DNA from: a virus
Lineage: Duplodnaviria > Heunggongvirae > Uroviricota > Caudoviricetes
Length of the DNA stretch: 14,002 nt
Strand: one strand, 5' to 3'
IMG/VR virus record: IMGVR_UViG_3300029828_000052
Location: 1-14,002 of that record
Position numbers and translations under genes: made by a program. The notes under the pieces were generated by a model. It saw only the letters and a program-made list of their open reading frames with translations. It had not been told where the DNA came from and made no database searches. Positions 1-14,002 of this stretch are shown here, piece by piece. How positions within the stretch are numbered: the stretch's first letter is position 1; the number at the start of each line of letters is the position of its first letter.

Positions 1-2340
1 CTGGCATCGAAGTCTATGGCTTTCCCCAGCTCAACGATTGTGCGTACATCGCGATCGTTGTAGTAACGCCACGGGCAGGGGATCCCCTGCCGTTCGTATG
101 AACGGCGCAAAATCGTGTTGTCGAAGTTGGCTCCATTCCCCCAGACCTGGACAAAAAATTCACCGGAGTTTTCATCTATAAATTCCCGCAATTGCAGTAG
201 CGCATCATCTAACGGGATTTCATCGGTCAGAATGGCAGATTGCGCCTCGCGTGATTGCTTGAGCCACCATTTAATGGTGTCACGATCAATGACTCCGCCA
301 GTAGTTTCCAGATCGATGGTCTTGCTAAATTCCGGTCCCATATCTCCGGTTTGCGGATCGAAAAATATTGCACCTATTGAGATAATCGGGGCATCAGGAT
401 TTTTTCCCATGGTTTCGAGGTCGATCATTAGATGGTCATACGTCCTGCTGGTGGATGTGATTTCGTGATGACCGTTCACCTTAATTGAGTGATCTGCCGC
501 CTCGCCAGTTTCATTATCGCTGGCGTGGTCCTGAGCGCTGCCAGCATTCTCCTTGAGTGGATGTTCAGCGCCTGCCATTTCCTCCGGATCATTTTCCTGA
601 ACTTCAACCTGATTCTCTTCATCGAATGTTTCCTGGTATGTTGCGTCGCCCATCACCGCGCCACAATCAGGGCAGTTGCCGTCGCCGGTCTGACCGCAGG
701 CGGTGCAGACTTTTTCCGCTTCCTGTTGCGCTACTGGCGCAGGTTGTTTCGTTTCTGGCTCGTTTTGTAACGCATTTGAGCTGTTTTGTTCCTCTTTCTG
801 GTCGTTCTGTTCCGTTTCTTGCTGGTTCTGGTTCACAGAATCGCGGGTTTCAATCCCCTTCACCCATTTCGGATCATTCGGGTCGCTAATCCCTGCAACA
901 AATTCACCGCGAGAGGCCGCAAGCAACTTATCGGCGTCAGGCTGGCTGATATTGGCTGCTTGCATAATTTTGTTTACTTCGTCAGCGGTAACTTTTACCT
1001 GATTAACTGGATCTATCTGTGCCTGAGCATCCAGCGATTGCGTGTCCTGGCGATGTTCAGTTGTATCCGGTTCCATTGTTTCAGCCGTTGCCTGTTCATC
1101 TGCCATTGCGTCAGACGGTTGTGATTTTTCCTCATTATTTTTTTCTTCTTCTGTTTCGCGTTCAGCAGCCAGTTCGCGGTTAACTTCTTCCAGGATATCT
1201 TTTTCCGGTGTATGTCGTGCAGCAGCGAGAGTTTCCTCGGAAGGGTTCTCGTGATCAGTCTCTGTTAAATAGGCGTTGATATACCCCTGAAGACGTCCCG
1301 GGTAATGATAAAACTCAGGGTGTGCGCTCCGGATAAGTGCAAAAATAGCGGCGCGGGAATAATCCAGGATACCCGGGATTGCGCGAAGTGCCGCGGACCA
1401 TTCTTTGAACGGACTTTCTTTCTTCCGGACGATTTCTTTTGCGCGACGATAAATGCTGCCCGGAATTTCATAAATATTAAAATCCATCGGAAGTGTGGCC
1501 GCTGCAATCTCCACATCCAGCGTATCGAAGGTGTGTACTAAATTCGGATTGCGATCGGTTTTGTTCCCTCCACCGGCATTAGCACCGGAAGCCGTGCGGG
1601 TGATGCGTGAAACACGATTTCCTTTCATCCACTCTTTTGTCAGCAGACCGCGATCGGTGTAGTCAGCGCCCAGGTATGCTTCGAAAAAAGCAGTCATCAG
1701 TCCCAGATCTGAATTACCAGGATTAGGGAAAACTTTGTCAGTGTCACGAACCAGTTTGTGGAGATCGCGAATTTCCAGCGGTTCGAGTTGCGCTGCTTTA
1801 TTTGAGATGGCCAGCGCGGTAACGGCGGGAAGTTTTTCATCCTGTGCGTTATGTAATGCGCGTAGTTCGCCCCGCGAAACGTGTGTGATCGGTTTTTCGC
1901 TGCCGTGCTGTGCCAGCCATCGAACAGGCAGAATCTGACCTGAAACCGGCAGGAGCATATTCTCCTCAATCTCAGTCATGTCTTCGCCGTTGACGTTGGT
2001 ATTGTCAGTGCTGGCTGGTTTATCCTGAACAGAGGGCGAGGGCGCGATAAGTACCATTGTGATACCATCTTCCCCGCCTTTTTCGTATCGGTTGCAGAAT
2101 TCGGTATCAAACACGCCTTCCGGAGGAAGGTCATTCACAACGGGTAAATGGACGCGAACAGGTTTTTTAAAATCCTCTTCGTCAAATCCTGCATCGTCCA
2201 TTGCGACAACACCGCGTGATATTGCAAGCGATAGTTTTTTTGCTGTGCGCCAGTAAAAACCGCCTTTAATCCCAAGACGTTTTCTGACTTTGTCATTTTT
2301 GGCTTCGTAATATAGTGCAATTTCTTCTTTATCAGTGCTC
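1..2340 (-). CDS. recE: Exodeoxyribonuclease VIII (RecE-family) protein, 3'-truncated by window edge; Cys4 motif and DnaQ-like DEDD exonuclease motifs near the window edge
   Basis: My own translation from ATG at 2340-2338 runs 780 codons to position 1 with no stop; the ORF track lists no minus-strand ORF in this frame, consistent with an open frame leaving the window. GAGG lies 8 nt upstream and an in-frame stop 8 codons upstream. Translation contains stretches I recognise as RecE-like ([50 protein letters not shown]), then [16 protein letters not shown], then MIDLETMG and VWGNGANFD. Confidence 0.7.
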
Positions 2341-2419
2341 ATTGATAAACCTCATTACAGATTTAAGGGTGAACAAATCCCTGCCATTGCTGGCATATAA
2401 AAATGAAACCGGATATTTA

Positions 2420-2623
2420 TTACGGTGCTGGTTTAAGTCCTGCCGGGATTTCGTTATTGTCCATGTGAATAACTTTATCAACCGGATAACAGTTACCGGG
2501 AATTTTCTGTTCTGCTGCGGCAGCCATGCATTCTTTCATCGAACCGTAAATGTCAATAACCAGGTCAACAGGCTCGCCAGTGTTAAGAAAAACAGTCAGA
2601 GTGAGGGCAACAGCAGTATTCAT
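2420..2623 (-). CDS. Small protein (67 aa), YdfD-like position downstream of dicB
   Basis: Internal ATG (2623-2621) of ORF 2420..2677; ATGA start/stop overlap with dicB gives translational coupling; AGGA upstream. Identity as YdfD is by position only. Confidence 0.5.
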   Translation of the reverse strand: MNTAVALTLTVFLNTGEPVDLVIDIYGSMKECMAAAAEQKIPGNCYPVDKVIHMDNNEIPAGLKPAP

Positions 2624-2808
2624 TGCCAGTATCCTTTTTGCATCAGACGTAAACGGGCCAGCATTGAAACAATGCATATTTTATTTAATAGCTCCCGTTC
2701 TTGTTTTCTCTTGTTAATGGCATCTTCAGTAAATACAGGGTTACTGATAGTGACACCAATTTCAAAACAACCTTCAGACGTATTAACGTTTGGTAATAAC
2801 GTTTTCAT
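2620..2808 (-). CDS. dicB: Cell division inhibitor DicB (62 aa)
   Basis: Internal ATG (2808-2806) of ORF 2620..2904 preceded by AGGA; the 62-aa product MKTLLPNVNTSEGCFEIGVTISNPVFTEDAINKRKQERELLNKICIVSMLARLRLMQKGYWQ matches my recollection of DicB in size and sequence; lies about 180 bp downstream of the DicF-like sRNA as in the Qin dicB operon. Confidence 0.8.
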   Translation of the reverse strand: MKTLLPNVNTSEGCFEIGVTISNPVFTEDAINKRKQERELLNKICIVSMLARLRLMQKGYWQ

Positions 2809-2991
2809 TATCGCGTCCTCAACAATGAATTTTGTGATGCAGTGCCTGGTGCCTCCAGGTGACGTTAACCAGTTAACAATTAACGCCGGATACAGAGAAC
2901 CCACCCATAAGAACCAATACGGAAGTCAACTGGCCTTTTTAACTGTTCCGCGTGCGCTGAGCCGCATTCACCGCATCACAAAATTCACTTT

Positions 2992-3050
2992 AAAAAGGGC
3001 GGACATCAGCCAGCAATGAAAACTGATGCCGCCAAAAGGTAATCAACATG
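2992..3050 (-). ncRNA. dicF: DicF-like small RNA with intrinsic terminator (boundaries approximate)
   Basis: Minus strand reads ...UUGAUUACCUUUUGGCGGCAUCAGUUUUCAUUGCUGGCUGAUGUCCGCCCUUUUU. It shares the UUUGGCGG(U/C)AUCAGUUUU core and the GCCGCCCUUUUU-type terminator with DicF as I recall it, and sits immediately upstream of dicB. Confidence 0.6.
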
Positions 3051-3281
3051 GGTTGTTGCAGCTGATTGCCACAACCGGAAGCGCACGGACGAAGATGCCG
3101 GCGGCACGCAACAGAGGGAGAAATAACTTCGCCGTGCGCTTTCGTGTTGTGCCCTGGCTTTTCAGGGATATATCCTTTCAGTAAACTGTCAGTGCCGGAT
3201 TCTTATCCGTGTCCGGCGCACGACCACACGTGGCAGCGTGTTGGTCTCCATTTTTAACCCAGAACCTCAATGGAGGATAAA

Positions 3282-3491
3282 ATGCCAAACAGACCAATAC
3301 ATCCGCTTATTGAAAAACAGATTGAATGTCTGGTTAATCAACTCAGGCAATCAGGGTTATTAAAAACTCATTCAGAGTTAAGACTCACGGAATCAGCATT
3401 TGACGATAAATTAAATAATGCGCTTTATAATGGCATCATTGATTACAATCGTGGTGCTGGTCGCCGTGGCCCTGCTGGTACTGCTTTGTAA
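3282..3491 (+). CDS. Hypothetical small protein (69 aa), convergent with the 212-aa gene
   Basis: ATG at 3282 with GGAGG 5 nt upstream (the ORF track start at 3270 lies inside that SD). Only ORF in a 440-bp stretch. Stops back-to-back with the opposing gene (TAATTA at 3489-3494). No recognisable family. Confidence 0.4.
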   Translation: MPNRPIHPLIEKQIECLVNQLRQSGLLKTHSELRLTESAFDDKLNNALYNGIIDYNRGAGRRGPAGTAL

Positions 3492-4130
3492 TTACCAGTT
3501 AATCCAGAGCGGATAGTGTTCAGCATAAATATAGCTATACACATCCAGGTTGTATTTGTGGTCTGTCCTTAGCAGGTCGCAAATACACGCCGCAGCTTCC
3601 AGGGAAGCGGCTTTGTTGCTGAATAACCATGTAGCAACATTCCAGCGATTATCTTTATCCCACTCTTTTGCGAGAGCTGACACCACGAAGGAGCCGTTGG
3701 TGTTGCCATCAAATACTTCCGTTTCCAGATTTTTAAGTAATGCCTGGTGAATTTTTGCCAGGTATTCAGTCGGAATTTCGCCACGAATTCGGATAAGGTT
3801 GTCATAAACAAACATGTTTCCCGCATATGGCGATTTTTCTTCCTTGTTTTTTAAACCAGCATCATGAGCAAACTGATCAATTTCTTCTTCCGTTGGTTTT
3901 GTATTGATGTTTTGCGCTGTCGCTTCTGCAATTTTCTTTGCCACATTCTCTGGGTCGTGTTTATTTACAGACGCACAGAAATACAATCCGGTAAACGCAT
4001 CGCGCACATTACGAACCATATTATCGATGGCTTCTTTTTCTACGGTACTCAGGTCAAGAGTCGCCAGTTGGGAACGAACTATATTCGCTGCCGTTTCCTG
4101 GAATTGCATTGGTAAATCTTTAAATTCCAT
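3492..4130 (-). CDS. Hypothetical protein (212 aa), no recognisable family; part of an apparent insertion between the ydfC-like gene and DicF
   Basis: Complete ORF in the track; start lies 22 nt downstream of the ydfC-like stop with a GAGG-type SD; translation looks protein-like, not low-complexity. Confidence 0.75.
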   Translation of the reverse strand: MEFKDLPMQFQETAANIVRSQLATLDLSTVEKEAIDNMVRNVRDAFTGLYFCASVNKHDPENVAKKIAEATAQNINTKPTEEEIDQFAHDAGLKNKEEKSPYAGNMFVYDNLIRIRGEIPTEYLAKIHQALLKNLETEVFDGNTNGSFVVSALAKEWDKDNRWNVATWLFSNKAASLEAAACICDLLRTDHKYNLDVYSYIYAEHYPLWINW

Positions 4131-4152
4131 TATTAACCTCGTTGGTTAGCTA

Positions 4153-4371
4153 TTAACGCGGGTATGTAATCATTCTGGCAATGCTTAATGCCGCTGCTTT
4201 TTCCAGCCTGGTGATATCCTGCTCCAGAGCGGACAGATTTTCAGCCTGCTTAGCCCTGGCTTCATTGGCCCATTTCAGATCCTGCGCTGCATTAATTTTC
4301 TGGCGCATCCACTCATAAAGTTCATCATCGGTATAGTCTGGCGCGATGATGACGGGTTCTCGTTTCTGCAT
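4153..4371 (-). CDS. YdfC-like small protein (72 aa)
   Basis: Complete ORF with GAGGA SD; position and size match ydfC of the dicB operon. Confidence 0.7.
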   Translation of the reverse strand: MQKREPVIIAPDYTDDELYEWMRQKINAAQDLKWANEARAKQAENLSALEQDITRLEKAAALSIARMITYPR

Positions 4372-4401
4372 ACTGAATTCCTCGCGGTGATGTTTCGCTT
4401 A

Positions 4402-4530
4402 TCAGCCGTTATATTTTGCCGAACTGGAAAGCGCCTGTTTAAATTCGTTGAAGCTGAGAGCTTCTTCGCCTTCGGCAAGGCCTTCGAAGTATTCTTCGTA
4501 AGCCTTTTCCATGATTGTGTCGAAATCCAT
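4402..4530 (-). CDS. YdfB/YdaG-like small protein (42 aa)
   Basis: My own translation (below the ORF-track size cutoff): MDFDTIMEKAYEEYFEGLAEGEEALSFNEFKQALSSSAKYNG. ATG sits 1 nt after the upstream gene's stop; AGGTGAG SD. Confidence 0.6.
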   Translation of the reverse strand: MDFDTIMEKAYEEYFEGLAEGEEALSFNEFKQALSSSAKYNG

Positions 4531-4531
4531 A

Positions 4532-4687
4532 TCACTCACCTGAGTTTCTTTCCAGCCAGCGACGCGCGCCAGATTCGGTTTTAAACATTTTGCTTTTGGT
4601 ATACGTCATCGCGGTGAACGTGCCGTCCTGGTTTGGGAACACGCCGCATACCAGAGATTCGTTGTTACCAAGATCGATAGTATCCAT
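4532..4687 (-). CDS. YdfA/YdaF-like small protein (51 aa)
   Basis: Internal ATG (4687-4685) of ORF 4532..4780 with GAGG SD: MDTIDLGNNESLVCGVFPNQDGTFTAMTYTKSKMFKTESGARRWLERNSGE. The 31-codon upstream extension runs through the operator sequence and is not used. Confidence 0.65.
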   Translation of the reverse strand: MDTIDLGNNESLVCGVFPNQDGTFTAMTYTKSKMFKTESGARRWLERNSGE

Positions 4688-4765
4688 ATTGACCTCATTT
4701 CCCCTTAACGCCGGGGTAGCGGAACTGTTTGCTGAGAACACCGTGCGGTGTCTTGATGGGTGGTA

Positions 4766-4877
4766 ATTTAGTTTTCTCATGAATTCTGGTCAAGTATTTT
4801 TAATGAGAAAACTCAACATTTAATGCAAAATAAAGCCAATACATTGAAATGTAAGGCTTTAAAATTTGTGAAGGGGG
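4766..4877. promoter_or_regulatory. Leftward early promoter/operator region (PL/OL-like) with two operator-like palindromes
   Basis: AT-rich intergenic region between repressor stop and first early-left gene. TGAGAAAACTCA at 4804-4815 and imperfect copy TTTAGTTTTCTCAT at 4768-4781, centres about 34 bp apart; same motif as the operator at 5336-5349. Confidence 0.5.
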
Positions 4878-5285
4878 TTACTGATGTTTGTTACGTTTGC
4901 GAGCTTCTAGTAGCTCGGTGAATAGGCGATTAAAATTCTCAACGCGGGCACGGAGTTCGCTGATTTGTGCTTGCTGCTCTGATTTTGGAAGTGCGCGATA
5001 CAATCGCAACATCTCCAACTCATCTTCCGATAAGTCTAAGGCGCTGTTGAGTGCAACTGGTGGATCTGGTGTTTTATCCTCGTCACCAAACAGTATCCAA
5101 GTTGGTGAACATTGCAATACCTCAGCCAGGCGATGCAAATTTTGCCCGCGCGGGGCTGTATGGTCGCTTTCCCATAGTGAAATTGATGAGCCAGATACGC
5201 CAGCAGCTTTGCTTAAATCGTTTTGACTTAAACCAACCTGTTTGCGTCTTTCTCTAATTCGTTGACCTAAAGTTTTCTCGTTCAT
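4878..5285 (-). CDS. dicA: HTH XRE-family prophage repressor, DicA-like (135 aa)
   Basis: Complete ORF; N-terminal HTH (LSQNDLSKAAGVSGSSISLWE); VLQCSPTWILFGDEDK and ARVENFNRLFTELLEARKR match my recollection of DicA; divergent from a cro-like gene. No obvious SD, so possibly leaderless. Confidence 0.9.
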   Translation of the reverse strand: MNEKTLGQRIRERRKQVGLSQNDLSKAAGVSGSSISLWESDHTAPRGQNLHRLAEVLQCSPTWILFGDEDKTPDPPVALNSALDLSEDELEMLRLYRALPKSEQQAQISELRARVENFNRLFTELLEARKRNKHQ

Positions 5286-5362
5286 ATTTAGATATCTTAA
5301 TAACCCTTGACTTGAGATTCCTTGAGTGATTACTATTGAGAAAACTCAACTTTGGAGGGGTG
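5286..5362. promoter_or_regulatory. Divergent promoter/operator region (PR/OR-like)
   Basis: -35 TTGACT (5307-5312), 18-nt spacer, -10 TACTAT (5331-5336); perfect palindrome TTGAGAAAACTCAA (5336-5349) overlapping the -10 and +1; CTTGAG half-sites at 5311-5316 and 5321-5326; GGAGGGG SD at 5354-5360. Confidence 0.6.
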
Positions 5363-5590
5363 ATGTTTAAATCAGACGTAATTAATTTTTATGGGACGAA
5401 AGCCAAAGTAGCGAAAGCTGCTGGTGTTGATCCATCTGCTGTTTCTCAATGGGGGGAATTGGTTCCTGAAGGTCGCGCGATGCGCCTGCAAGAGGCATCC
5501 GGCGGGGAACTTCAGTACGACCCCAAAGTTTATGACGAATATCGTAAGGCAAAGCGGGCGGGGCGGTTGAACAATGAAAATCACCCCTGA
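5363..5590 (+). CDS. dicC: Cro-like regulator, DicC/YdaS family (75 aa)
   Basis: ATG at 5363 sits 3 nt after the GGAGGGG SD; the track start at 5336 is a TTG inside the operator. Small basic protein divergent from the repressor gene. Confidence 0.75.
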   Translation: MFKSDVINFYGTKAKVAKAAGVDPSAVSQWGELVPEGRAMRLQEASGGELQYDPKVYDEYRKAKRAGRLNNENHP

Positions 5591-6125
5591 ACAGGTTTGT
5601 GAGGCTCTGGATGCCTGGGTATGCCGACCAGGAATGACACAGGAGCAGGCGACGATATTAATCACGGAAGCATTCTGGGCTCTGAAAGAACGCCCGAACA
5701 TCGATGTTCAACGCGTCACGTTTAATGATGGCGAGGTTGATCAACGGGCGCTGGGCGTTAACCGGGTGAAGATATTCGAACGCTGGAAAGCTATCGACAC
5801 CAGGGATAAGCGGAAAAAATTCACGGCGCTGATTCCGGCAATTATGGAGGCTATCCGAATTAGTGATTTCAGGTTGTATCGTGAGATCAGTGATGGAAAA
5901 AGCATTACGTACATGATCGCCGGATTAAACAAAGAATATGGCGATGTGGTGGAGTCTGGGCTGCTTTTTGCGGATCCATCTGTTGTGGAACGTGAGACTG
6001 ACGAGCTTATAGAAAAAGCTATTGCTTTCAAGCATGCGTATCGTCAGCAATATCAATATTACTTTGCAGATAAACAAATGTCTGCCAGGGGTTCGTATGA
6101 GTATCGATGCACTACGATGGGCTAA
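5574..6125 (+). CDS. YdaT-like (CII-like) regulatory protein (183 aa)
   Basis: Complete ORF overlapping the cro-like gene by 17 nt; second gene after cro; contains ALIPAIMEAI, resembling what I recall of Rac YdaT. Confidence 0.7.
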   Translation: MKITPEQVCEALDAWVCRPGMTQEQATILITEAFWALKERPNIDVQRVTFNDGEVDQRALGVNRVKIFERWKAIDTRDKRKKFTALIPAIMEAIRISDFRLYREISDGKSITYMIAGLNKEYGDVVESGLLFADPSVVERETDELIEKAIAFKHAYRQQYQYYFADKQMSARGSYEYRCTTMG

Positions 6126-7137
6126 AAAGGTGAAAACCGGCAGTTCATCCAGTAAGTCTGTATTGACCTGGCTTGCTGATATGTGCGGTGCCGATTTGTG
6201 TGCATACCCGTCTGTATCTGCACTGGCAGAAGTAACGGAACTGAACAAAAAGACTGTGCAGGACAGCTTACGACACCTGATGGAGATTGGGTTAATTGTT
6301 GATACCGGTGAGAGAAAAGGCAAAACAAAGCAAATTGTGGTGTACCGACTTATCGGTGTAGAAGAAAGTGTTGCCGAGCCTGAATACACCCAAAAACGGG
6401 AGTCTTTAAAGGTGGGTAAAATTGGTGCTGTTAATAAAAACAGTACCGAAAATGGTTATGTTTCAGCACAAAACAGACCCAAAAACGGAACTCTTAGCTG
6501 CATGGAAAATAACCAAAGACACCCAAATTTTCCATCAAAGACACCCAAAAACGGATCACGGAACCCAAAGGAACCCAAAGATCTAAACCCCACACATAAC
6601 GCACGCGAGAGTGCTCCGACCAGTGAGCAGGAGGTTTTGTCGTTACAGGCAGCCCCCCCTGTATTCCTGGATGGCCTGAGCGAACCCATCGGAAAATTCC
6701 CGATGAGCGATAGCTGGTATCCGTCACGGGATTTTCGACGACGGGCTGCGTTGTGGGGGATGGCTTTGCCGGAGACAGAATTTACACCTGCTGAACTTGC
6801 CGCCTTCCGGGACTACTGGGCAGCGGAGGGTAAAGTTTTCACGCAGGTTCAGTGGGAGCAGAAATTCGCCCGTCACGTAAATCACGTCAGGGCGCAGGCT
6901 AAACCAGTCAGCAAGGGGGTAAACCATGCAGCAGCACCAGGTGGCACCGCATCACGGGCAGTTCAGGAAATTCGGGCAGCACGTGAGCAGTGGGAACGTG
7001 AAAACGGATTTATCAACGACGGAAACTGCCTGGAAGCTGTGGGAACTCATGGGGGAGGTTTATTCGAACCGCTGGACCCAGAAGAACGGGGCCGCACCTT
7101 CGAAGCTCTGGATTGCACAGATTGGCGCGATGACTGA
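6097..7137 (+). CDS. Replication initiation protein, O-like (N-terminal HTH, low-complexity linker, DnaT-like C-terminal region)
   Basis: ATG at 6097 with AGGGG SD (track start 6022 is further upstream). N-terminus MSIDALRWAKK...SVSALAEVTELNKKTVQDSLRHLMEIGLI is HTH-like; linker NRPKNGTLSCMENNQRHPNFPSKTPKNGSRNPKEPK coincides with the iteron-like repeats; C-terminal DSWYPSRDF...FRDYWAAEGKVFTQVQWEQKFARHV. The last ~70 codons overlap the P-like ORF. Confidence 0.75.
   Translation: MSIDALRWAKKVKTGSSSSKSVLTWLADMCGADLCAYPSVSALAEVTELNKKTVQDSLRHLMEIGLIVDTGERKGKTKQIVVYRLIGVEESVAEPEYTQKRESLKVGKIGAVNKNSTENGYVSAQNRPKNGTLSCMENNQRHPNFPSKTPKNGSRNPKEPKDLNPTHNARESAPTSEQEVLSLQAAPPVFLDGLSEPIGKFPMSDSWYPSRDFRRRAALWGMALPETEFTPAELAAFRDYWAAEGKVFTQVQWEQKFARHVNHVRAQAKPVSKGVNHAAAPGGTASRAVQEIRAAREQWERENGFINDGNCLEAVGTHGGGLFEPLDPEERGRTFEALDCTDWRDD
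6475..6580. repeat. Iteron-like direct repeats inside the O-like gene linker (candidate origin)
   Basis: AGACCCAAAAACGGAAC (6475-6491), AGACACCCAAATTTTCC (6517-6533), AGACACCCAAAAACGGATC (6539-6557), tandem GAACCCAAAG x2 (6561-6580); 21-22 bp phasing. Confidence 0.45.
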
Positions 7138-7591
7138 GCAGCAAATCCGGCAGGTCTGCCGCCAGTGCATGGACCGTTGCAGGGCAGGTGAAACATGGCC
7201 TCCGGACCTGGCTGAGTTTGTGGCGCTGATTTCGGAGAGCGGGGCAAATCCATTTGGTCTGACGGTGGATAACGTGATGGAGGAGTACCGACGCTGGCGC
7301 AACGAGTCCTGGCGATACGACGGAAGCGATAAATACCCGTGGTCTCAGCCTGTGCTGTATCACATTTGTCTCGAGATGCGTTCCAAGGGGATTGAGCGCC
7401 AGATGACCGAAGGGGAGTTAAAACGGCTTGCAGAACGGCAACTGGCGAAATGGGCAAAGCATGTTGGTAACGGACTGAGTGTTCCACCCGTCCGTAGGCA
7501 ACTGGCAGCACCCATACGTCCTGCGGGACCAACGCCAATTGAGTTGCTGAAACAGGAATATGAACGCAGGAAAGCGGCAGGTTTTGTTTGA
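6926..7591 (+). CDS. Replication protein P-like helicase loader (221 aa from ATG 6926; alternative starts 7049 or 7130)
   Basis: WPPDLAEFVALI and DKYPWSQPVLYHICLEMR resemble lambda P (GQFVAWC, SYPWKSNAHYWLV) as I recall it. ATG 6926 has a strong SD (AAGGGGG, 6-nt spacing) but overlaps the O-like ORF by 212 nt. Confidence 0.7.
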   Translation: MQQHQVAPHHGQFRKFGQHVSSGNVKTDLSTTETAWKLWELMGEVYSNRWTQKNGAAPSKLWIAQIGAMTEQQIRQVCRQCMDRCRAGETWPPDLAEFVALISESGANPFGLTVDNVMEEYRRWRNESWRYDGSDKYPWSQPVLYHICLEMRSKGIERQMTEGELKRLAERQLAKWAKHVGNGLSVPPVRRQLAAPIRPAGPTPIELLKQEYERRKAAGFV

Positions 7592-7620
7592 GTTGATAAG
7601 TAATTTTACCGGGAGGGTTT

Positions 7621-8016
7621 ATGGCGAAACCTTTTACACCCGAACAGCGGGAAGAGCTGAAGGCACGAATTATCGGATTGGTACGCAAAAATGGACGCAT
7701 GACGATGTCGCAACTGGAGAGAGCGACGGGAGCTGGCTGGCATTCGGTCCGGCGCTGCCTTGTGGATGTACTGGCTTGTGGTGATTTATACATGTCCGGG
7801 GAATACGGTGTTTTTGCATCAGAGCAGGCGTATCGTGAATGGCGTAAGACACCGGAGAAAACAACTGACCAGACACTGATTCGAAAGTTACCAGACGGAG
7901 AAATACGCCGCTACGACAGACACCTGAACATAATCTGTCGCGAGTGCCGGAAGAGTGAGGTTATGCAGCGAGTGCTGGCGTTTTATCAGGGGAAATTTCA
8001 GGAGGTGATGCTGTGA
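7621..8016 (+). CDS. Hypothetical protein (131 aa)
   Basis: Complete ORF; GGGAGGG SD just upstream of ATG; 4-nt overlap with the next gene. Confidence 0.7.
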   Translation: MAKPFTPEQREELKARIIGLVRKNGRMTMSQLERATGAGWHSVRRCLVDVLACGDLYMSGEYGVFASEQAYREWRKTPEKTTDQTLIRKLPDGEIRRYDRHLNIICRECRKSEVMQRVLAFYQGKFQEVML

Positions 8017-8279
8017 GCGAATCAAAATGTCAGGTTAATGGCAATCAGATAGAACCATGTGCGGCACTGGCAAAAGCCCTTGAGCATGATGCTGAATACA
8101 CGATGCGAAAAGGTCTGCTGATATACAAAATCTGGAATGAGAATTTAACTCGCGCCCCTGATTTGGTGATGTTGCGTTCCGGTAAATTTTCTAAATCACC
8201 TATTCGAGTCTCATTTTGCCCGTTCTGTGGTGAAAGTCTGAAAACATGGAAAAAGGAGACAACCAGTGAGCAGGATTGA
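8013..8279 (+). CDS. Hypothetical protein (88 aa), Cys-containing (CPFCG)
   Basis: GTG start at 8013 with AGGAGGT SD 6 nt upstream; GTGA overlap with the upstream gene. Confidence 0.65.
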   Translation: MSESKCQVNGNQIEPCAALAKALEHDAEYTMRKGLLIYKIWNENLTRAPDLVMLRSGKFSKSPIRVSFCPFCGESLKTWKKETTSEQD

Positions 8280-8862
8280 CTATCAGGCACTGCGTGGGGC
8301 GGCAGAAGCAATAAAAATAGCAGCCACACCACAAAAATTGCTGGCATTTCGTATGAAAGTCACACCTCAGGTTGTGCTGGCTCTACTGGATGAACGAGAT
8401 GCATTAAATGAACGCCTAGCCGAACTGGAGGCTGATTTAGCAGGGCTGGCCGAAGACCAACAGAAATCGATTGAGTCAATTAAGCAGGCTGATGAAGCTG
8501 TTAAGTTGGCACACGAGAAGTTTTCGGCGCTTGCGGCGGAGAATGAGCTGGCTCGTAAGGCAGTTCAGGCATTCTGCGATGTTGTTGGCGACAACACCGA
8601 GGTTATCGCTGAGGTGGTTGGGCGAGATAGCGTTCTGGTTATTTTGGAGGACATGAAGGCAACAGGAAATATGCCAGCCACCGATGCTTTTCTGGCTGAA
8701 GTACGGGCGCAGGGCGTGGAGATGCTGGCAAAAAATCATCAGAGTATCGTCAATGCACTTAAGGGAGATTCTTTATTTTCTGATGGTGAATACCGACATG
8801 CAGCTATTGTTTCCGCAGCTGTATATTTCGCTGCAGAGCTTCGCAAAGGAGGCAACCAGTGA
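8266..8862 (+). CDS. ead/Ea22-like family protein (198 aa)
   Basis: GTG start with AGGAG SD; N-terminal IDYQALRGAAEA and LLDERDALNERLAELEA are typical of Ea22-like proteins; paralog of the next gene. Confidence 0.75.
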   Translation: MSRIDYQALRGAAEAIKIAATPQKLLAFRMKVTPQVVLALLDERDALNERLAELEADLAGLAEDQQKSIESIKQADEAVKLAHEKFSALAAENELARKAVQAFCDVVGDNTEVIAEVVGRDSVLVILEDMKATGNMPATDAFLAEVRAQGVEMLAKNHQSIVNALKGDSLFSDGEYRHAAIVSAAVYFAAELRKGGNQ

Positions 8863-9467
8863 GAAAAATTAATTATCAGGCGCTACGTGATGCGGCAGAA
8901 AAGGCAACACAGGGTGAATGGGTCGCATTTATTTCGCCGGGCAAATACGGCACGTACGCCGTGCACACACCAGGAGATAATCATCACGGAGATATTGTCG
9001 ACTGGCCTGGATTCGACGGACAGAAAAACGCAGAGAACAACGCTCGTTATATCGCAGCTTTCAACCCTGAAGTAGTGCAGGCGCTGTTGGATGAACGAGA
9101 AGCCCAAAGCAAACGCATTGCAGAGCTGGAGGCTAATTTCACGGTGCTGGCAGTGGAGAATGTTGGAATAAAGTCTGCAATCCCAGAGCCACGGGATATT
9201 GAGGATGACAATGACAATATGGATGACGTCTCTCTTGCTGAAGACTTCGGATTCAATCATGCAATAGAATGGATGAGGAGACGGATTGAAACTCCAGCCA
9301 CCGACGCTTTCCTGGCGGATGTGCGGGCTGGGGCGTTTAACGACCTTTGCGCGGCGTTTGTCAGGCACGCAAAAGTTGCAGGACTGGATGATGCCGATAC
9401 CGTAACGCTTAAGGAAGTGACAGAAGTATTGTTGCATTGTGCGGAACAGATTCGCGCGCCTGAATAA
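8859..9467 (+). CDS. ead/Ea22-like family protein (202 aa), tandem paralog
   Basis: GTG start in GTGA overlap with the upstream paralog; shares INYQALRDAAEKA, LLDEREAQSKRIAELEA and PATDAFLADVRAG with it. Confidence 0.75.
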   Translation: MRKINYQALRDAAEKATQGEWVAFISPGKYGTYAVHTPGDNHHGDIVDWPGFDGQKNAENNARYIAAFNPEVVQALLDEREAQSKRIAELEANFTVLAVENVGIKSAIPEPRDIEDDNDNMDDVSLAEDFGFNHAIEWMRRRIETPATDAFLADVRAGAFNDLCAAFVRHAKVAGLDDADTVTLKEVTEVLLHCAEQIRAPE

Positions 9468-9562
9468 TTAAATTTAGTGTTGTAAATAAAATTTAATCCT
9501 TAACCGGAGGGATTTCTGCACCCTCAGAACATCAGGAGGCCGCCCGAAAGGGCGGTAATGAA

Positions 9563-9745
9563 ATGCGAAAGTTCAAAATAATTATTGAAACGGGAATAGC
9601 TGGTGGAGATTTTGAAGATGTATTCGAAGTGGATGATGATGCGACACCAGATGAAATAAAGGACGAAGCAAAAGAAATTTTCTTTAACTACTGCAATTAC
9701 TCATATCACGAAATAAAAGACGAGGAGGAAGAACAAAATGGCTGA
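9563..9745 (+). CDS. Small highly acidic protein (60 aa)
   Basis: Complete ORF; very D/E-rich; AGGAGG lies about 30 nt upstream, separated from the ATG by a GCCGCCC-GAAA-GGGCGG hairpin. Confidence 0.55.
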   Translation: MRKFKIIIETGIAGGDFEDVFEVDDDATPDEIKDEAKEIFFNYCNYSYHEIKDEEEEQNG

Positions 9746-9914
9746 TTTTGGTTCAACTAAATATAACGCCAGTTTTGAAGAATGGCATGAACTGTTAATG
9801 GATTATGCAGAGTTACGCGGTGGAAGTGCCGCTGATGCTGAAGCATGGCGTGATGATTATGAAGCAGGAAAAACTCCGGTCGAAGCATATTGTGATGAGT
9901 GGGGCGATGAATGA
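9738..9914 (+). CDS. Small acidic protein (58 aa)
   Basis: My own translation (below track cutoff): MADFGSTKYNASFEEWHELLMDYAELRGGSAADAEAWRDDYEAGKTPVEAYCDEWGDE. ATGGCTGA overlap with the upstream gene; GAGGAGG SD. Confidence 0.5.
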   Translation: MADFGSTKYNASFEEWHELLMDYAELRGGSAADAEAWRDDYEAGKTPVEAYCDEWGDE

Positions 9915-9935
9915 ACCACCACAAGAGGGGGCATA

Positions 9936-10112
9936 ATGAAAATGCGGATGGGAAATTGTTTATTGCCGTATCTGGTGCGGTTTGGGGCGTCGTCATTAAC
10001 AGTTATTCCACATGTCATGATGGTTGACAATATTATCCCGGCACCGAAGCGCCGTACCGGTATTGCAGCGGCACGACGTGCAGCAAAGAAACGCAGGAGA
10101 GCAAAACGATGA
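9936..10112 (+). CDS. Small protein (58 aa) with hydrophobic N-terminus and Arg/Lys-rich C-terminus
   Basis: My own translation: MKMRMGNCLLPYLVRFGASSLTVIPHVMMVDNIIPAPKRRTGIAAARRAAKKRRRAKR. AGAGGGGG SD 5 nt upstream; ATGA overlap with the next ORF. Confidence 0.4.
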   Translation: MKMRMGNCLLPYLVRFGASSLTVIPHVMMVDNIIPAPKRRTGIAAARRAAKKRRRAKR

Positions 10113-10297
10113 AAAACCGTAAAGCAAAAATTCTGTTAGCTCGCAGAAACGGTCCTGGCGTCTGGCAGTGGGTGAGACTCAGCAACCGACGAATGGGGTT
10201 GATGAAATATTACGGGATGATGGATTGTGGTTTTTGCAAAAAGCCCAGCGCGGCGCAAAACCGCTGGAAAAACCACTTGCGCACTAAAGGAGAGTGA
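10109..10297 (+). CDS. Small basic protein (62 aa)
   Basis: Complete ORF; GGAGAG SD; translationally coupled to neighbours on both sides. Confidence 0.5.
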   Translation: MKNRKAKILLARRNGPGVWQWVRLSNRRMGLMKYYGMMDCGFCKKPSAAQNRWKNHLRTKGE

Positions 10298-10298
10298 T

Positions 10299-10814
10299 AT
10301 GGCGTTAACACACCGCGAACTCTGTCAGATTGCGTATAAGTTCCTTAAGCGCAACGGGTTCAAGGTTTGTTTTCATGACCGCTTTATAGCTGTAACCAGT
10401 ACCGGAGAACAGCCAGATGCTATGGGATTCAGAAATTCAGCATCATGCCTGATAGAGGCGAAATGTTCTCGTGCTGACTTGTTGGCAGATAGAAAAAAGC
10501 GTTTTCGTAAAAATCCGTCTCTTGGAATGGGCGACTGGCGATTCTTTATTAGTGAGCCGGGAATTATTTCAGTTGAGGATTTACCACCTGGCTGGGGATT
10601 ACTTCACGTTGTTAACGGAAGAGTACGGAAAGTACATGGGTGGCCCAAGGGGAATTGCTGTTGGGGTAACCCTGAAGATAAACCTTTTATTGGGAATAAG
10701 CAGGTTGAATGCGATTACATGTTATCTGCATTAAGGCGCATGGAGTTGAGAGGGCACCTTAATGAAATATATGACGGCGTAATTGTTAATAAGAAAGAAG
10801 GAAACGCGGCATGA
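10299..10814 (+). CDS. Hypothetical protein (171 aa) with PD-(D/E)XK nuclease-like motif
   Basis: ATG at 10299 with AAGGAG SD 6 nt upstream (the track start at 10227 overlaps the previous gene). GEQPDAMGF followed by CLIEAKCS fits a PD...ExK signature. Confidence 0.65.
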   Translation: MALTHRELCQIAYKFLKRNGFKVCFHDRFIAVTSTGEQPDAMGFRNSASCLIEAKCSRADLLADRKKRFRKNPSLGMGDWRFFISEPGIISVEDLPPGWGLLHVVNGRVRKVHGWPKGNCCWGNPEDKPFIGNKQVECDYMLSALRRMELRGHLNEIYDGVIVNKKEGNAA

Positions 10815-11317
10815 CCACTATTACCAAAGAGCGACTACTGACAATCAAGCAGTGGCGCGAAACATACGGACCTGGTAGCAACGTTATACTGCCAGCAGAA
10901 GAAGCGGAAGAACTGGCACGGATTGCACTGGCATCACTGGAAGCAGAGCCGGTGGTTTACATGTGGGATAGCGAAAGAAAAGATATTGATGCCCCCGGGT
11001 ATTATCGGGCTGAGCATTTAGTGTTCGCTGAGAGTAGTGTTAAGCAATGGGGAGGGCGAGTTGTTCCACTTTACACCGCCCCGCCAGCGACGGTAGTGCC
11101 GGAATTTGAAACATGGTTTAACAGCCAGGAGCCAGGGAGGAGTATATGCAGCACACAGATTCGTCGCTCCCTTCAGGAAATCTCATGGAACGCCTGCTGC
11201 GCCGCTCCCTTCAGGAAATCTCATGGAACGCCTGCTGCGCCGCCATGCTTCAGGGGAAAGGCGATGGTATCCTCACCAATGAGGATACCAAAGGGGACGT
11301 TCAGGTACGGGAATTAA
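10811..11317 (+). CDS. Hypothetical protein, C-terminus frameshifted by a 38-bp tandem duplication (possible pseudogene)
   Basis: ATGA overlap with the upstream gene; protein-like up to the repeat at about 11165, then an aberrant tail (PFRKSHGTPAAPPCFRGKAMVSSPMRIPKGTFRYGN). Confidence 0.55.
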   Translation: MTTITKERLLTIKQWRETYGPGSNVILPAEEAEELARIALASLEAEPVVYMWDSERKDIDAPGYYRAEHLVFAESSVKQWGGRVVPLYTAPPATVVPEFETWFNSQEPGRSICSTQIRRSLQEISWNACCAAPFRKSHGTPAAPPCFRGKAMVSSPMRIPKGTFRYGN

Positions 11318-11442
11318 CAATGCTGATTAAACAACTGGCTAGCCAATTGAGGAAAGCGAAGCCGAACTGCAAATTACCGGAGAAGGCGATGGTCTACCTG
11401 AAGCGAAACGGACTGATAAGCGCGGAGGATATTTTACGATGA
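11146..11442 (+). CDS. ORF carrying the displaced C-terminal part of the upstream gene (98 aa from ATG 11146)
   Basis: ATG at 11146 with GGGAGGAG SD; after the duplication the frame reads a protein-like tail (GILTNEDTKGDVQVRELTMLIKQLASQLRKAK...). Removing one repeat copy fuses it in-frame to 10811. Confidence 0.4.
   Translation: MQHTDSSLPSGNLMERLLRRSLQEISWNACCAAMLQGKGDGILTNEDTKGDVQVRELTMLIKQLASQLRKAKPNCKLPEKAMVYLKRNGLISAEDILR
11165..11243. repeat. Perfect 38-bp tandem direct duplication (2 copies) inside coding sequence
   Basis: GCTCCCTTCAGGAAATCTCATGGAACGCCTGCTGCGCC at 11166-11203 and again at 11204-11241, checked base by base; period-38 identity spans 11165-11243. Confidence 0.95.
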
Positions 11443-11522
11443 CCTGGCCTGAAGCATTCACAACGGTAGGAATTGCGATGGCGGTGGCGCTGGTGGTGTA
11501 TTCGATTTGCCGCTGGGGATAA
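11439..11522 (+). CDS. Putative small hydrophobic peptide (27 aa)
   Basis: My own translation: MTWPEAFTTVGIAMAVALVVYSICRWG. ATGA overlap with the stop of 11146..11442; GGAGG about 10 nt upstream. Speculative. Confidence 0.3.
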   Translation: MTWPEAFTTVGIAMAVALVVYSICRWG

Positions 11523-11674
11523 AAACGGTTTGCGGGAAAAGGAGAGTTAAGTAGAATTGCTGCGGGTGCTTGAGGCTATCTGCCTCAGGCATGAACACCA
11601 AAAGGCAGATAGAGAAAAGCCCCAGTTAACATTACGCGTCCTGCAAGACGCTTAACATTAATCTGAGGCTCCCT

Positions 11675-11887
11675 ATGCATGACAACATCAGGTTAGCCTC
11701 TTACGTGCCGAAAGGCAAGGAGAAGCAGGCTATGAAGCAGCAAAAGGCGATGTTAATCGCCCTGATCGTCATCTGTTTAACCGTCATAGTGACGGCACTG
11801 GTAACGAGGAAAGACCTCTGCGAGGTACGAATCCGAACCGGCCAGACGGAGGTCGCTGTCTTCACAGCTTACGAACCTGAGGAGTAA
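11675..11887 (+). CDS. Mok-like reading frame (in-frame N-terminal extension of hok, 70 aa)
   Basis: Complete 70-aa ORF that contains Hok; this architecture matches the annotated chromosomal mok/hok pairs as I recall them. Confidence 0.5.
   Translation: MHDNIRLASYVPKGKEKQAMKQQKAMLIALIVICLTVIVTALVTRKDLCEVRIRTGQTEVAVFTAYEPEE
11732..11887 (+). CDS. hokD: Hok/Gef-family type I toxin (51 aa), HokD-like
   Basis: MKQQKAMLIALIVICLTVIVTALVTRKDLCEVRIRTGQTEVAVFTAYEPEE: single transmembrane helix and conserved C-terminus typical of Hok; followed by a 3' stem-loop and an intrinsic terminator. Confidence 0.85.
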   Translation: MKQQKAMLIALIVICLTVIVTALVTRKDLCEVRIRTGQTEVAVFTAYEPEE

Positions 11888-11955
11888 GAGACCAGGCGAG
11901 GGAGAAATCCCTCGCCACCTCTGATGTGTCAGGCATCCTCAATGCACCCGCACTT

Positions 11956-11980
11956 AACCCGCTTCGGCGGGTTTATTTTA
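11956..11980 (+). terminator. Rho-independent terminator downstream of hok
   Basis: ACCCGC-TTCG-GCGGGT stem-loop followed by TTATTTTAT. Confidence 0.7.
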
Positions 11981-12345
11981 TCTGTAAATATTTTTATAAA
12001 AATAATGCCCACACACAGCATAAAACAAAAAGTATCACAGATAAAAAAGGAGCGTAATGTGCAGATTTGTTGTTTTCCATATTTACTCACTTTAACATAA
12101 TCAATATTGATATGGTTGTTGTTTTGGTGGTTTCAAACGAGATGTTATGGTGATCTGGTAAAATTGCATAACATTAAAATTTAATTTATCTAATCGCTTT
12201 TAATAATAAGCGTTGTGTTTATCCCAACAATCTGTTGTTTGACTTTTATTCCATTAATGTAGGGGCTTTACACTGGAACCAGTTTATTTATACTTTATAC
12301 GCCAGCCTGAACAACTGGCACCTGCTGCGCCAGCAGAGACAACCG

Positions 12346-12624
12346 ATGGCGCACGATACCAAATTACACAATTCTGATGATTCTGCCGTCTTTGCCAGCA
12401 GGTGCGGACGGCGTTTTCATGCATTCAAATCGGACTGGTTCCAGCATCCACCATGCACTGAAGAGCAGGCTGAATGGATAATTCAGTGTTACCGCAGGCG
12501 CGGATACGAGGTTAAAAAAGCCCTTAGCCTCGACTACCGTCACTGGATAATCTCCGTCAGGCTTCCTTACTCCGAACGCCCACCGCGTCCGTCCCGCACA
12601 TTCCAGCAACGCATCTGGAGGTAA
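12346..12624 (+). CDS. Hypothetical protein (92 aa), Rem-like position between hok and the DUF968 gene
   Basis: ATG at 12346 inside ORF 12235..12624 (track start is a TTG in the AT-rich region); weak SD; stop 1 nt before the next gene's GTG. Confidence 0.5.
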   Translation: MAHDTKLHNSDDSAVFASRCGRRFHAFKSDWFQHPPCTEEQAEWIIQCYRRRGYEVKKALSLDYRHWIISVRLPYSERPPRPSRTFQQRIWR

Positions 12625-12625
12625 C

Positions 12626-13675
12626 GTGCGGGTATTACTTCGACCTGTTCTGGTACCGGAACTCGGGCTGGTGATAGTTAAGCCGGGCCGTGAATCCATG
12701 CCGGTATTCCACAATACCCGGGTACTGGTGGAGCCGGAACCGAAAAGCATGCGTAATCTGCCGTCCGGGGTCGTTCCTGCCGTTCGCCAGCCGCTGGCGG
12801 AGGATAAATCATTACTGCCATTTTTCAGCGACGAACGAGTGATTCGTGCTGCTGGTGGCGCTGGCGCATTGTCTGACTGGTTACTGCGCCATGTTAAATC
12901 CTGCCAGTGGCCACACGGCGATTATCACCATAGTGAAACCGTCATTCACCGTTATGGTACCGGCGCAATGGTGTTGTGCTGGCACTGCGACAACCAGTTG
13001 CGTGACCAGACCTCCGAATCACTTGAGCAACTTGCTCACCAAAACTTGTCAGCATGGATGATTGACGTCATTCGTCACGCAATGAATGGCACACAGGAGC
13101 GGGAATTATCGCTGGCTGAATTATCCTGGTGGGCGGTCCGCAATCAGGTGGCGGACGCGCTACCGGAGGCGGTATTACGTCGTTCGCTGGGGTTGCGTGC
13201 GGAAAAAATCCGCTCAATGTACCGTGAAAGCGACATCGTACCGGGAGAGCAGACCGCCACCAGCATACTGAAACAGCGCACAAAAAATCTTGCGCCGCTG
13301 CCTCACGCCCACCAGCAACAGAACCCACCACAGGAAAAGACGGTGGTCAGCATTGCCGTTGATCCTGAGTCTCCGGAATCTTTCATGAAACGACCTAAAC
13401 GTCGCCGCTGGGTTAACGAGAAATACACACGCTGGGTGAAGACACAGCCGTGTGCGTGTTGTGGTAAGCCAGCCGACGATCCCCATCACCTGATTGGTCA
13501 TGGTCAGGGCGGAATGGGGACAAAATCTCACGATATTTTCACGCTACCGCTGTGTCGGGAGCATCACAACGAGCTTCATGCGGATCCGCTGGCGTTCGAA
13601 GAAAAGCATGGTTCTCAGGTTGATTTAATTTTTCGTTTTCTTGATCACGCCTTTGCAACTGGCGTGCTTGGGTAA
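12626..13675 (+). CDS. DUF968 domain protein, YdfU-like (349 aa), with Cys/His HNH-like motif
   Basis: GTG start with GGAGG SD; C-terminal CACCGKPADDPHHLIGHGQGG...CREHHNELH; sits immediately upstream of rusA as in Qin-type prophages. Confidence 0.85.
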   Translation: MRVLLRPVLVPELGLVIVKPGRESMPVFHNTRVLVEPEPKSMRNLPSGVVPAVRQPLAEDKSLLPFFSDERVIRAAGGAGALSDWLLRHVKSCQWPHGDYHHSETVIHRYGTGAMVLCWHCDNQLRDQTSESLEQLAHQNLSAWMIDVIRHAMNGTQERELSLAELSWWAVRNQVADALPEAVLRRSLGLRAEKIRSMYRESDIVPGEQTATSILKQRTKNLAPLPHAHQQQNPPQEKTVVSIAVDPESPESFMKRPKRRRWVNEKYTRWVKTQPCACCGKPADDPHHLIGHGQGGMGTKSHDIFTLPLCREHHNELHADPLAFEEKHGSQVDLIFRFLDHAFATGVLG

Positions 13676-13687
13676 AAGAGGTGACTG

Positions 13688-14002
13688 ATGCTCATAGATT
13701 TGGTTTTACCTTACCCGCCGACGGTGAACACTTACTGGCGACGCCGTGGCAGCACATATTTTATCTCGGAGGAGGGAAAGCGTTATCGCCGGGCTGTGGT
13801 GCTTATTGTTCGCCAGCAGCGGCTGAAATTAAGCCTGTCCGGAAGGCTGGCGATAAAGGTGATTGCAGAGCCACCGGATAAGCGCCGCCGCGACCTGGAC
13901 AATATCCTGAAGGCACCACTGGATGCGCTGACGCATGCCGGACTACTTATAGACGACGAGCAGTTTGATGAAATCAATATTGTGCGCGGTCAGGTCGTTC
14001 CT
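13688..14002 (+). CDS. rusA: Holliday junction resolvase RusA, 3'-truncated by window edge
   Basis: My own translation from ATG 13688 (AAGAGG SD): MLIDLVLPYPPTVNTYWRRRG...PDKRRRDLDNILKAPLDALTHAG, matching the RusA signature (PDRRRRDLDN..K...DAL); open to the window end. Confidence 0.9.
   Translation, partial: MLIDLVLPYPPTVNTYWRRRGSTYFISEEGKRYRRAVVLIVRQQRLKLSLSGRLAIKVIAEPPDKRRRDLDNILKAPLDALTHAGLLIDDEQFDEINIVRGQVVP

Follow-up and report, generated by a model that had tools for sequence, protein, structure and literature searches.

Herein, we report on a 14,002-nt stretch of DNA from a virus of the class Caudoviricetes (IMG/VR record IMGVR_UViG_3300029828_000052, positions 1 to 14,002; hereafter the window), which carries on its minus strand a dicB early-left operon of the type known from the Qin prophage of Escherichia coli K-12. 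Positions 3223-4132 of this operon are one allele of a polymorphic accessory slot and not a one-off insertion. The allele holds two convergent genes, p212 (212 amino acids [aa], on the operon strand) and p69 (69 aa, on the opposite strand), and this pair is a real, uncharacterised feature that can reasonably be regarded as a candidate phage-conflict module. On comparative grounds we read the cassette, tentatively and with somewhat less than even confidence, as a slot allele with a cognate two-gene accessory module that sits in a sieB-equivalent slot, is convergently controlled and probably serves phage-phage or phage-host conflict.

The p212 open reading frame (ORF) occupies positions 3492-4130 on the minus strand, with a GAGG Shine-Dalgarno (SD) sequence 6 nt before its ATG. 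The p69 ORF runs from 3282 to 3491 on the plus strand and is preceded by GGAGG at 3272-3276, 5 nt before the ATG at 3282. The two stop codons meet directly (TAA/TTA, 3489-3494), so that no base separates the genes. Both ORFs, the strong SD of the shorter one and the abutting stops had been called in the initial annotation of the window, and the ORF listing and the sequence uphold each of these calls. The ratio of nonsynonymous to synonymous substitution rates (dN/dS, NG86) was 0.17-0.58 for p212, with dS up to 0.79, and 0.03-0.30 for p69 (pairs with dS >= 0.05), with dS up to 0.49. Given that dN/dS is below 1, that an SD precedes each gene and that PGAP annotates both, p212 and p69 are, as judged from their sequences, both real protein genes under purifying selection. 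In PHROGs, p212 matched phrog_2151 (E = 3.1e-114, positions 1-212 of 212) and p69 matched phrog_4274 (E = 1.3e-42, positions 1-69 of 69), and the function of neither family is assigned there. Some sources name p212 Ybl81; literature searches found no paper on p212/Ybl81 or p69.

The prevalence of the pair was assessed in a census of 5426 complete E. coli genomes. The p69 DNA was found at 744 places in 597 genomes and the C-terminal half of p212 at 751 places in 600, which puts the pair in about 11% of complete E. coli genomes, with up to four copies per genome. O157:H7 carries it as WP_000394548.1 and WP_001133037.1, both annotated 'hypothetical'. In IMG/VR, the C-terminal domain (C-domain) of p212 adjoins p69 tail to tail in 72 of 72 p69 loci, and the gap between them is 0 nt in 69 of these. 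The pair is constant while its flanks vary: the gene upstream can be ydfA, ydfB or ydfC, and the dicB allele downstream ranges from 55 to 97% identity.

Two parts of p212 recur separately in other proteins. The N-terminal helical module (N-module) comprises residues 1-57 (3960-4130, minus strand), and a C-terminal alpha/beta domain of about 115 aa, which follows a helical linker, comprises residues ~99-212 (3495-3836, minus strand). The AlphaFold2 (AF2) model of p212, of low-to-moderate confidence (predicted local distance difference test [pLDDT] 65.8, predicted template modelling score [pTM] 0.46), has four helices followed by b-b-a-b-b-a-b, and from this model we read the C-domain fold as a ferredoxin-like sandwich with an extra strand. 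For p69, the model has two helices followed by a basic tail that is disordered (pLDDT 59.5, low after residue 56); the p69 sequence has SGLLK as its conserved core and GRRGPAGxxL as its C-terminal tail. In three loci (L080, L086 and L088), a frameshift within or close to the A-rich linker (KNKKEKS region) interrupts p212, at sites homologous to window ~3830-3860; these frameshifts could represent sequencing error, decay, or slippage that splits the N-module from the C-domain.

Among 1.84 billion representative proteins, a profile search found only 61 relatives, most of which share only the N-module. The C-domain, on the other hand, is found with different N-termini in Salmonella enterica-type prophages, in which the gene order is Int, repressor, Cox and then the C-domain gene. 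Two such proteins, P0175 (286 aa) and P0184 (220 aa), have only the C-domain in common with p212, and P0175 has an Xre-type helix-turn-helix (HTH) domain, HTH_3, inserted before it. Downstream of each of the two genes lies a 64-69-aa ORF that converges on it and overlaps it, and these small ORFs are p69 homologs at 40-50% identity, with SGLLK, F..KL and (G)RRGxPAGxxL in common. Eight more Cox-type Salmonella loci have the same arrangement with C-domain partners of 217-307 aa, some of them with HTH_3. In two further Salmonella loci, a free-standing C-domain of ~126 aa, with 79% identity to residues 96-212 of p212, is again tail to tail with p69, and an N-module gene is found separately close by. 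Throughout these Salmonella loci, the p69-like gene abuts or overlaps the C-domain gene. The tail-to-tail pair is therefore present in Salmonella at 33-50% protein identity with other N-termini. Considering that the C-domain and p69 recur together behind different N-termini, the conserved unit is the C-domain plus p69. Residues invariant in all C-domains are P101, M106, Y109, L112, I113, I115, G117, I119, P120, Y123, L131, L135, F140, D141, G142, N145, G146, F148, A166, W168, F170, S171, A175, E178, I183 and W209 (p212 numbering). At one locus (L249, 4848-5867), an IS110-family transposase gene lies between cox and the C-domain gene.

Searches for function were made at the level of both sequence and structure. 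Neither p212 nor p69 had an informative match in Pfam, NCBIfam or PADLOC (E up to 0.1-1 for p69). Against PADLOC-DB v2, p212 reached at best E = 0.026-0.031 over short stretches and p69 matched nothing; the pair does not register there as a known defence system. The initial annotation had named the early-left operon as a common site of superinfection-exclusion, abortive-infection or toxin-like genes; for this pair, a role in defence, abortive infection or toxicity is a hypothesis. PDB sequence profiles gave no informative match for either protein. With Foldseek, nothing in the PDB reached significance (best E = 0.06), nor did anything in BFVD, where the best matches were Prp/YsxB-like (best E = 0.011, TM score 0.21-0.35, low-confidence model). 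A Prp/YsxB-like cysteine protease was considered and dropped, as the Salmonella C-domain homologs do not share C182, C184 and H205. The initial annotation had described the 212-aa protein as lacking a recognisable family, and this description holds, PHROG families without function being the only ones found; the hidden Markov model and structure searches that it proposed (Pfam, defence profiles and Foldseek) match p212 and p69 to no well-characterised family.

The limits of the cassette were taken from blastn breakpoints in a local alignment with the K-12 Qin locus. Window 4133-4758 corresponds to Qin ydfABC at 95.5% DNA identity, 3066-3222 to the Qin ydfC-dicF intergenic region at 78%, and 2348-3036 to the 3' part of dicF plus dicB and ydfD at 86%. 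The variable cassette, to which no strand is assigned, is 910 bp here (3223-4132) versus 40 bp in Qin. From the ydfC stop to DicF, the window measures 1104 bp, in agreement with the 1.1 kb first estimated; the corresponding distance in K-12 MG1655 is 340 bp by annotation and not the 100 bp or so given in the initial annotation of the window. The initial annotation had taken about 1.1 kb, a GC-rich spacer included, as extra DNA in an otherwise Qin-like operon that looked like moron-type cargo. The alignment that it proposed does place a difference from Qin at 3223-4132, but the true indel is 910 bp, the spacer falls outside it, and the segment is an allele of a polymorphic slot; what stands is accessory cargo at a variable early-left position, and what does not is insertion into an otherwise Qin-like operon. 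No flanking direct repeats were found around 3223-4132, and a transposon-like insertion was rejected for this reason. The base composition of the cassette is unremarkable.

The slot lies between the ydf genes and a conserved DicF leader in lambdoid dicBF-type early-left operons. Residues 1-55/75 of p212 also match, by PHROG profiles, four other phage families of different length. At the same place, other E. coli prophages carry ORFs of 106, 122, 124, 135 and 186 aa that have a common N-module of about 50-57 aa ('MEFKDLP...') and then divergent C-termini, and the DNA homology of other loci to the window is confined to the slot ends (3982/4018-4140, and up to 3222 or 3285-3288). At least six unrelated C-termini are found joined to the N-module, which belongs to no Pfam family. 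In the E. coli census, N-module DNA was found at 3046 places in 1691 genomes, which amounts to about 45% of leader-bearing loci, and K-12 Qin is therefore an empty allele. The initial annotation had proposed an undescribed system and had named, as grounds for giving that up, the routine presence in Qin-type operons of a homologous gene with a known housekeeping function; an N-module gene is indeed routine there, and the families concerned have no characterised function. Outside Escherichia, the N-module was found in Xenorhabdus stockiae (L009, 1688-1828) at 40% identity, and one-genome-per-species GTDB contigs yielded 2 loci only. In one slot copy (L201, 2801-3253), an IS1-like transposase gene disrupts the slot.

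Slot types were surveyed in 80 IMG/VR loci. The commonest N-module type is 124 aa long and clusters with length variants of 106 and 109 aa; its sampled 124-aa members have no partner ORF. The 135-aa type is accompanied by a 77-aa convergent ORF in 18 of 18 cases, and the 101/122-aa type pairs with a 105-aa convergent ORF. Further loci have a 106-aa gene with an annotated 91-aa convergent ORF, or a 186-aa gene whose convergent neighbour is a zinc-ribbon ORF of about 84 aa; the 186/84, 106/91 and 101-122/105 pairings are each known from single examples. The alternative partner ORFs had no Pfam or PADLOC match, and among partner ORFs coding constraint was computed for p69 only.

The position of p69 resembles that of sieB in the Rac prophage. 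The order in Rac is ydaG-ydaF (DUF1391, minus strand), sieB (plus strand, stops overlapping), kilS (minus strand) and kilR (minus strand). Like p69, Rac sieB thus lies on the opposite strand, between a DUF1391 gene and the small RNA (sRNA) and division inhibitor, and its stop overlaps that of the upstream operon gene. p69 occupies the SieB position, being antisense to the early-left operon and flanked by the DUF1391 genes on one side and by the division-inhibiting sRNA and protein on the other. No membership of the SieB family was found with Pfam, NCBIfam or PADLOC, and p69 differs from Rac SieB in length (69 versus 162 aa) and in having, by eye, no hydrophobic segment. In phage P22, the exclusion factor SieB, its inhibitor Esc and the antisense RNA sas let the resident phage escape its own exclusion (PMC12197685). 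The putative partner of p69, in contrast to the P22 SieB/Esc pair, is a separate convergent gene and not an in-frame product.

If the cassette is such a module, p69 and the p212 C-domain would be cognate interacting partners. p212 would be made from the repressor-controlled early operon on derepression, and p69 from the opposite strand in the repressed prophage, as is sieB in Rac. Close by, a terminator-like site is present only within the p212 ORF, and there is none between p212 and p69. Since the genes are convergent with no terminator between them, the transcript of the DicF/DicB operon must cross p69 in the antisense direction, and any transcript of p69 likewise continues into p212 as antisense; convergent antisense transcription of this kind could lead to mutual interference between the two genes. 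More speculatively, and by analogy with SieB/Esc/sas, one partner might act against phage development or the host, and the other might neutralise it when the resident phage itself grows. A hairpin read from the sequence, CTCCAT(18 nt)ATGGAG at 3246-3275 on the plus strand, includes the p69 SD; its stem is retained, with different loops, upstream of the Salmonella p69-like genes, and any function of the hairpin is putative.

Several observations weigh against this reading. An intact p212 without p69 was found in three loci (L071, L082 and L085). In L082, the p69 ORF has been deleted, and another convergent ORF, of the zinc-ribbon type, is present close by. Conversely, p69 is intact in the three loci with a frameshifted p212. 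Because exceptions exist in both directions, presence and absence give no direction of dependence, and an asymmetry (p69 never without p212) that might have told which partner neutralises the other was dropped as an argument. The p212 and p69 families are confined to Escherichia and Salmonella, so common ancestry may explain part of the conserved synteny. The family and structure searches linked the two proteins neither to SieB nor to any defence or toxin family. A consensus scan gave no convincing sigma-70 promoter for p69, its single match overlapping the p69 start codon, and the AF2 models of p212 (65.8) and p69 (59.5) are both of low confidence.

The tight linkage of p212 and p69 in IMG/VR and in the E. 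coli counts would also suit a classical toxin-antitoxin or abortive-infection pair, an idea near to that of the initial annotation, in which p212 is a toxic early protein and p69 a labile antidote, made constitutively in the lysogen, that buffers leaky or spontaneous derepression. p69 is small and has a disordered basic C-terminal tail, and small size and a disordered tail are typical of many labile antitoxins. The dicBF operon is itself toxic and is spontaneously derepressed in a subpopulation of cells (PMC10448788). However, p212 and p69 are convergent and not co-transcribed, and no known toxin-antitoxin domain was found in either with Pfam, NCBIfam or PADLOC. The HTH typical of antitoxins and regulators sits, in Salmonella, on the C-domain protein, and p212 is intact without p69 in L071, L082 and L085. 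We consider a classical pair of this type rather unlikely. The same Salmonella HTH_3, ahead of the C-domain in P0175, favours a regulatory module, in which a regulator would bind its partner or ligand through the C-domain, and the small p69, as an anti-repressor or co-factor, would modulate early transcription, DicF/DicB output or the establishment of lysogeny. The position of the Salmonella C-domain gene directly after cox/apl is that of an early regulator, and p69 is preceded by a conserved leader and the SD-covering hairpin. Nevertheless, E. coli p212 has no DNA-binding domain detectable with Pfam, and p69 is not oriented in the same way relative to the repressor gene in the E. coli and Salmonella contexts. 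Moreover, the slot is empty in Qin and the commonest, 124-aa, N-module type has no partner ORF, so a core regulatory role is unlikely, and to the regulatory explanation as a whole we assign a low probability.

Two simpler explanations dispense with any partnership. The genes might be unrelated morons side by side, coupled only by linkage in a small young cassette; this accords with the narrow taxonomic range, with the separate loss or breakage of p212 and p69 in some loci and with the pairing of a p212-like gene with a different convergent ORF in L082. Yet the pair lasts at 33-50% identity in a different backbone, across three N-terminal architectures and always tail to tail, and it is constant within mosaic flanks. 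Alternatively, the 69-aa ORF might be a chance antisense ORF and p212 the sole gene, given that the ORF is short and that the consensus scan detected no promoter. This is contradicted by the low dN/dS of p69 at dS up to 0.49, by its ideal SD spacing and by its retention, with conserved motifs, in E. coli, E. albertii and S. enterica down to 40% identity. Because the pairing is conserved and p69 is under coding constraint, independent neighbours are improbable and a spurious p69 exceedingly so.

Beyond this one allele, the 'MEFKDLP' proteins and their type-specific convergent partners might constitute an unrecognised class of polymorphic two-gene modules in the early operons of lambdoid and Cox-type prophages, of the exclusion-plus-self-immunity or effector-plus-neutraliser kind, with convergent wiring to the lysogenic and lytic states, and p212/p69 would then be the most widespread allele of the class; we regard this as speculative and rather unlikely. 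Polymorphic toxin-immunity cassettes (CdiA-CT/CdiI, Rhs and colicins) likewise have a shared N-terminal part and interchangeable C-termini, and their small neighbouring ORFs, specific to each type, may have a parallel in the convergent partner ORFs of the slot. They differ from the slot in that the partners here are convergent and not co-directional, in that no secretion or delivery domain and no recognisable toxin fold was found in the slot proteins, and in that the slot proteins are small cytoplasmic phage early proteins. Prophage pairs of the type II toxin-antitoxin or HTH-regulator kind resemble p212/p69 as two-gene units with one small partner and, in some homologs, an Xre HTH; in contrast to type II systems, p212 and p69 are convergent and not operonic, and they match no toxin-antitoxin family and cannot be placed in that class.

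About one complete E. coli genome in nine carries the pair, and often multiple copies of it. It lies within a much-studied cryptic-prophage operon and is annotated 'hypothetical' throughout. If the proposal of exclusion plus self-immunity is true, p212/p69 would represent a new gene family and a new wiring principle in prophage-mediated phage resistance, with convergent partners tied to opposite life-cycle states. Expression of DicF/DicB would be affected as well, since the operon transcript must cross the module. If the pair is only a host-takeover or regulatory accessory, it would be ordinary prophage dark matter. K-12 lacks the cassette and therefore offers a clean test background.

Adjacent to the cassette and outside it is a conserved structured leader (3050-3235, minus strand), the DicF precursor region, which has 78% identity to the Qin intergenic region. 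Folding and alignment place a long stem at ~3066-3090 with 3129-3153 and a hairpin at 3193-3216. The leader RNA folds better than shuffled controls (z = -3.2); in an alignment of 27 of its 57 distinct versions, the stem, about 22 bp long, is invariant for the most part but has a variable apex. With 3060-3225 as the query, it was found at 6814 places in 3567 of the census genomes. In K-12, RNase III cuts the leader region to yield a 190-nt DicF species, which RNase E then trims (PMC10448788). Being homologous to the Qin intergenic region, the GC-rich spacer is this conserved DicF precursor leader and hence not cargo; the structure attributed to it in the initial annotation is real, and its assignment to the extra DNA is not. 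Salmonella Cox-type prophages carry the same leader (for example, L165, 6085-6270). In L166, the leader is followed by a C4-type antisense RNA (RF01695, 74 bits; 6783-6870, plus strand) and a gene of the 'Derepression' family, which together replace DicF and dicB; in L165, no sRNA was detected downstream of the leader. Various prophage sRNAs may share this leader as a general platform for processing by RNase III.

The DicF-like sRNA of the window, with its intrinsic terminator, lies at 2997-3048 on the minus strand. It matches Rfam RF00039 over the full length (39.4 bits, E = 9e-7), although the gathering score, 48, is not reached. The 5' (targeting) half of the RNA departs from that of K-12 DicF, the alignable Qin sequence beginning at window 3036, and the distance from the leader to the alignable part of DicF is 29 nt in the window versus 133 in Qin. 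Part of the 2997-3065 region (minus strand) also aligns to the Rac kilR-kilS region at 79%. Judging by the divergent 5' half, the window RNA may have different mRNA targets from K-12 DicF.

The early-left operon follows the Qin-type order on the minus strand, namely repressor, ydfA-, ydfB- and ydfC-like genes, DicF-like RNA, dicB and ydfD, and matches in Pfam, PHROGs and Rfam together with the DNA alignment to Qin confirm the order given in the initial annotation. The ydfA/ydfB/ydfC genes, the structured leader with DicF, and then dicB and ydfD are all those of a Qin-type dicBF operon, though the sRNA is a divergent variant. Upstream, the repressor in the DicA position (4878-5285, minus strand; HTH_3, E = 1e-16) has only a weak, 67-nt DNA match to dicA by blastn; its immunity specificity therefore differs from that of Qin despite the near-identical ydfABC. 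The ydfA-like gene (minus strand) has a Pfam DUF1391 match (E = 5.5e-28), and the ydfC-like gene next to the cassette (4153-4371, minus strand; phrog_1744) lies within the block that is 95.5% identical to Qin ydfABC. Downstream, dicB (2620-2808, minus strand) matches Pfam DicB over residues 33-94 of the listed ORF (E = 2.2e-39), and the ydfD-like gene (minus strand) matches DUF1482 (E = 4e-20). The window thus shares with Qin its backbone, gene order, leader before the sRNA and closely similar ydfABC (95.5%) and dicB/ydfD (86%), and differs from it in the 910-bp cassette in place of 40 bp, in the DicF 5' half, in the immunity type of its repressor and in the leader-DicF spacing, which is about 100 nt longer in Qin.

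Elsewhere in the window, a hok/sok type I toxin-antitoxin locus was found, with a sok antisense RNA at 11564-11737 (plus strand; full length, Rfam RF01794, 118 bits) and a Hok-like 70-aa ORF at 11675-11887 (plus strand); in Qin, hok/sok adjoins relBE. Two plus-strand ORFs of about 200 aa each, at 8266-8862 and 8859-9467, appear paralog-like and have the motifs 'YQALR.AAE' and 'ATDAFLA.VRA' in common.

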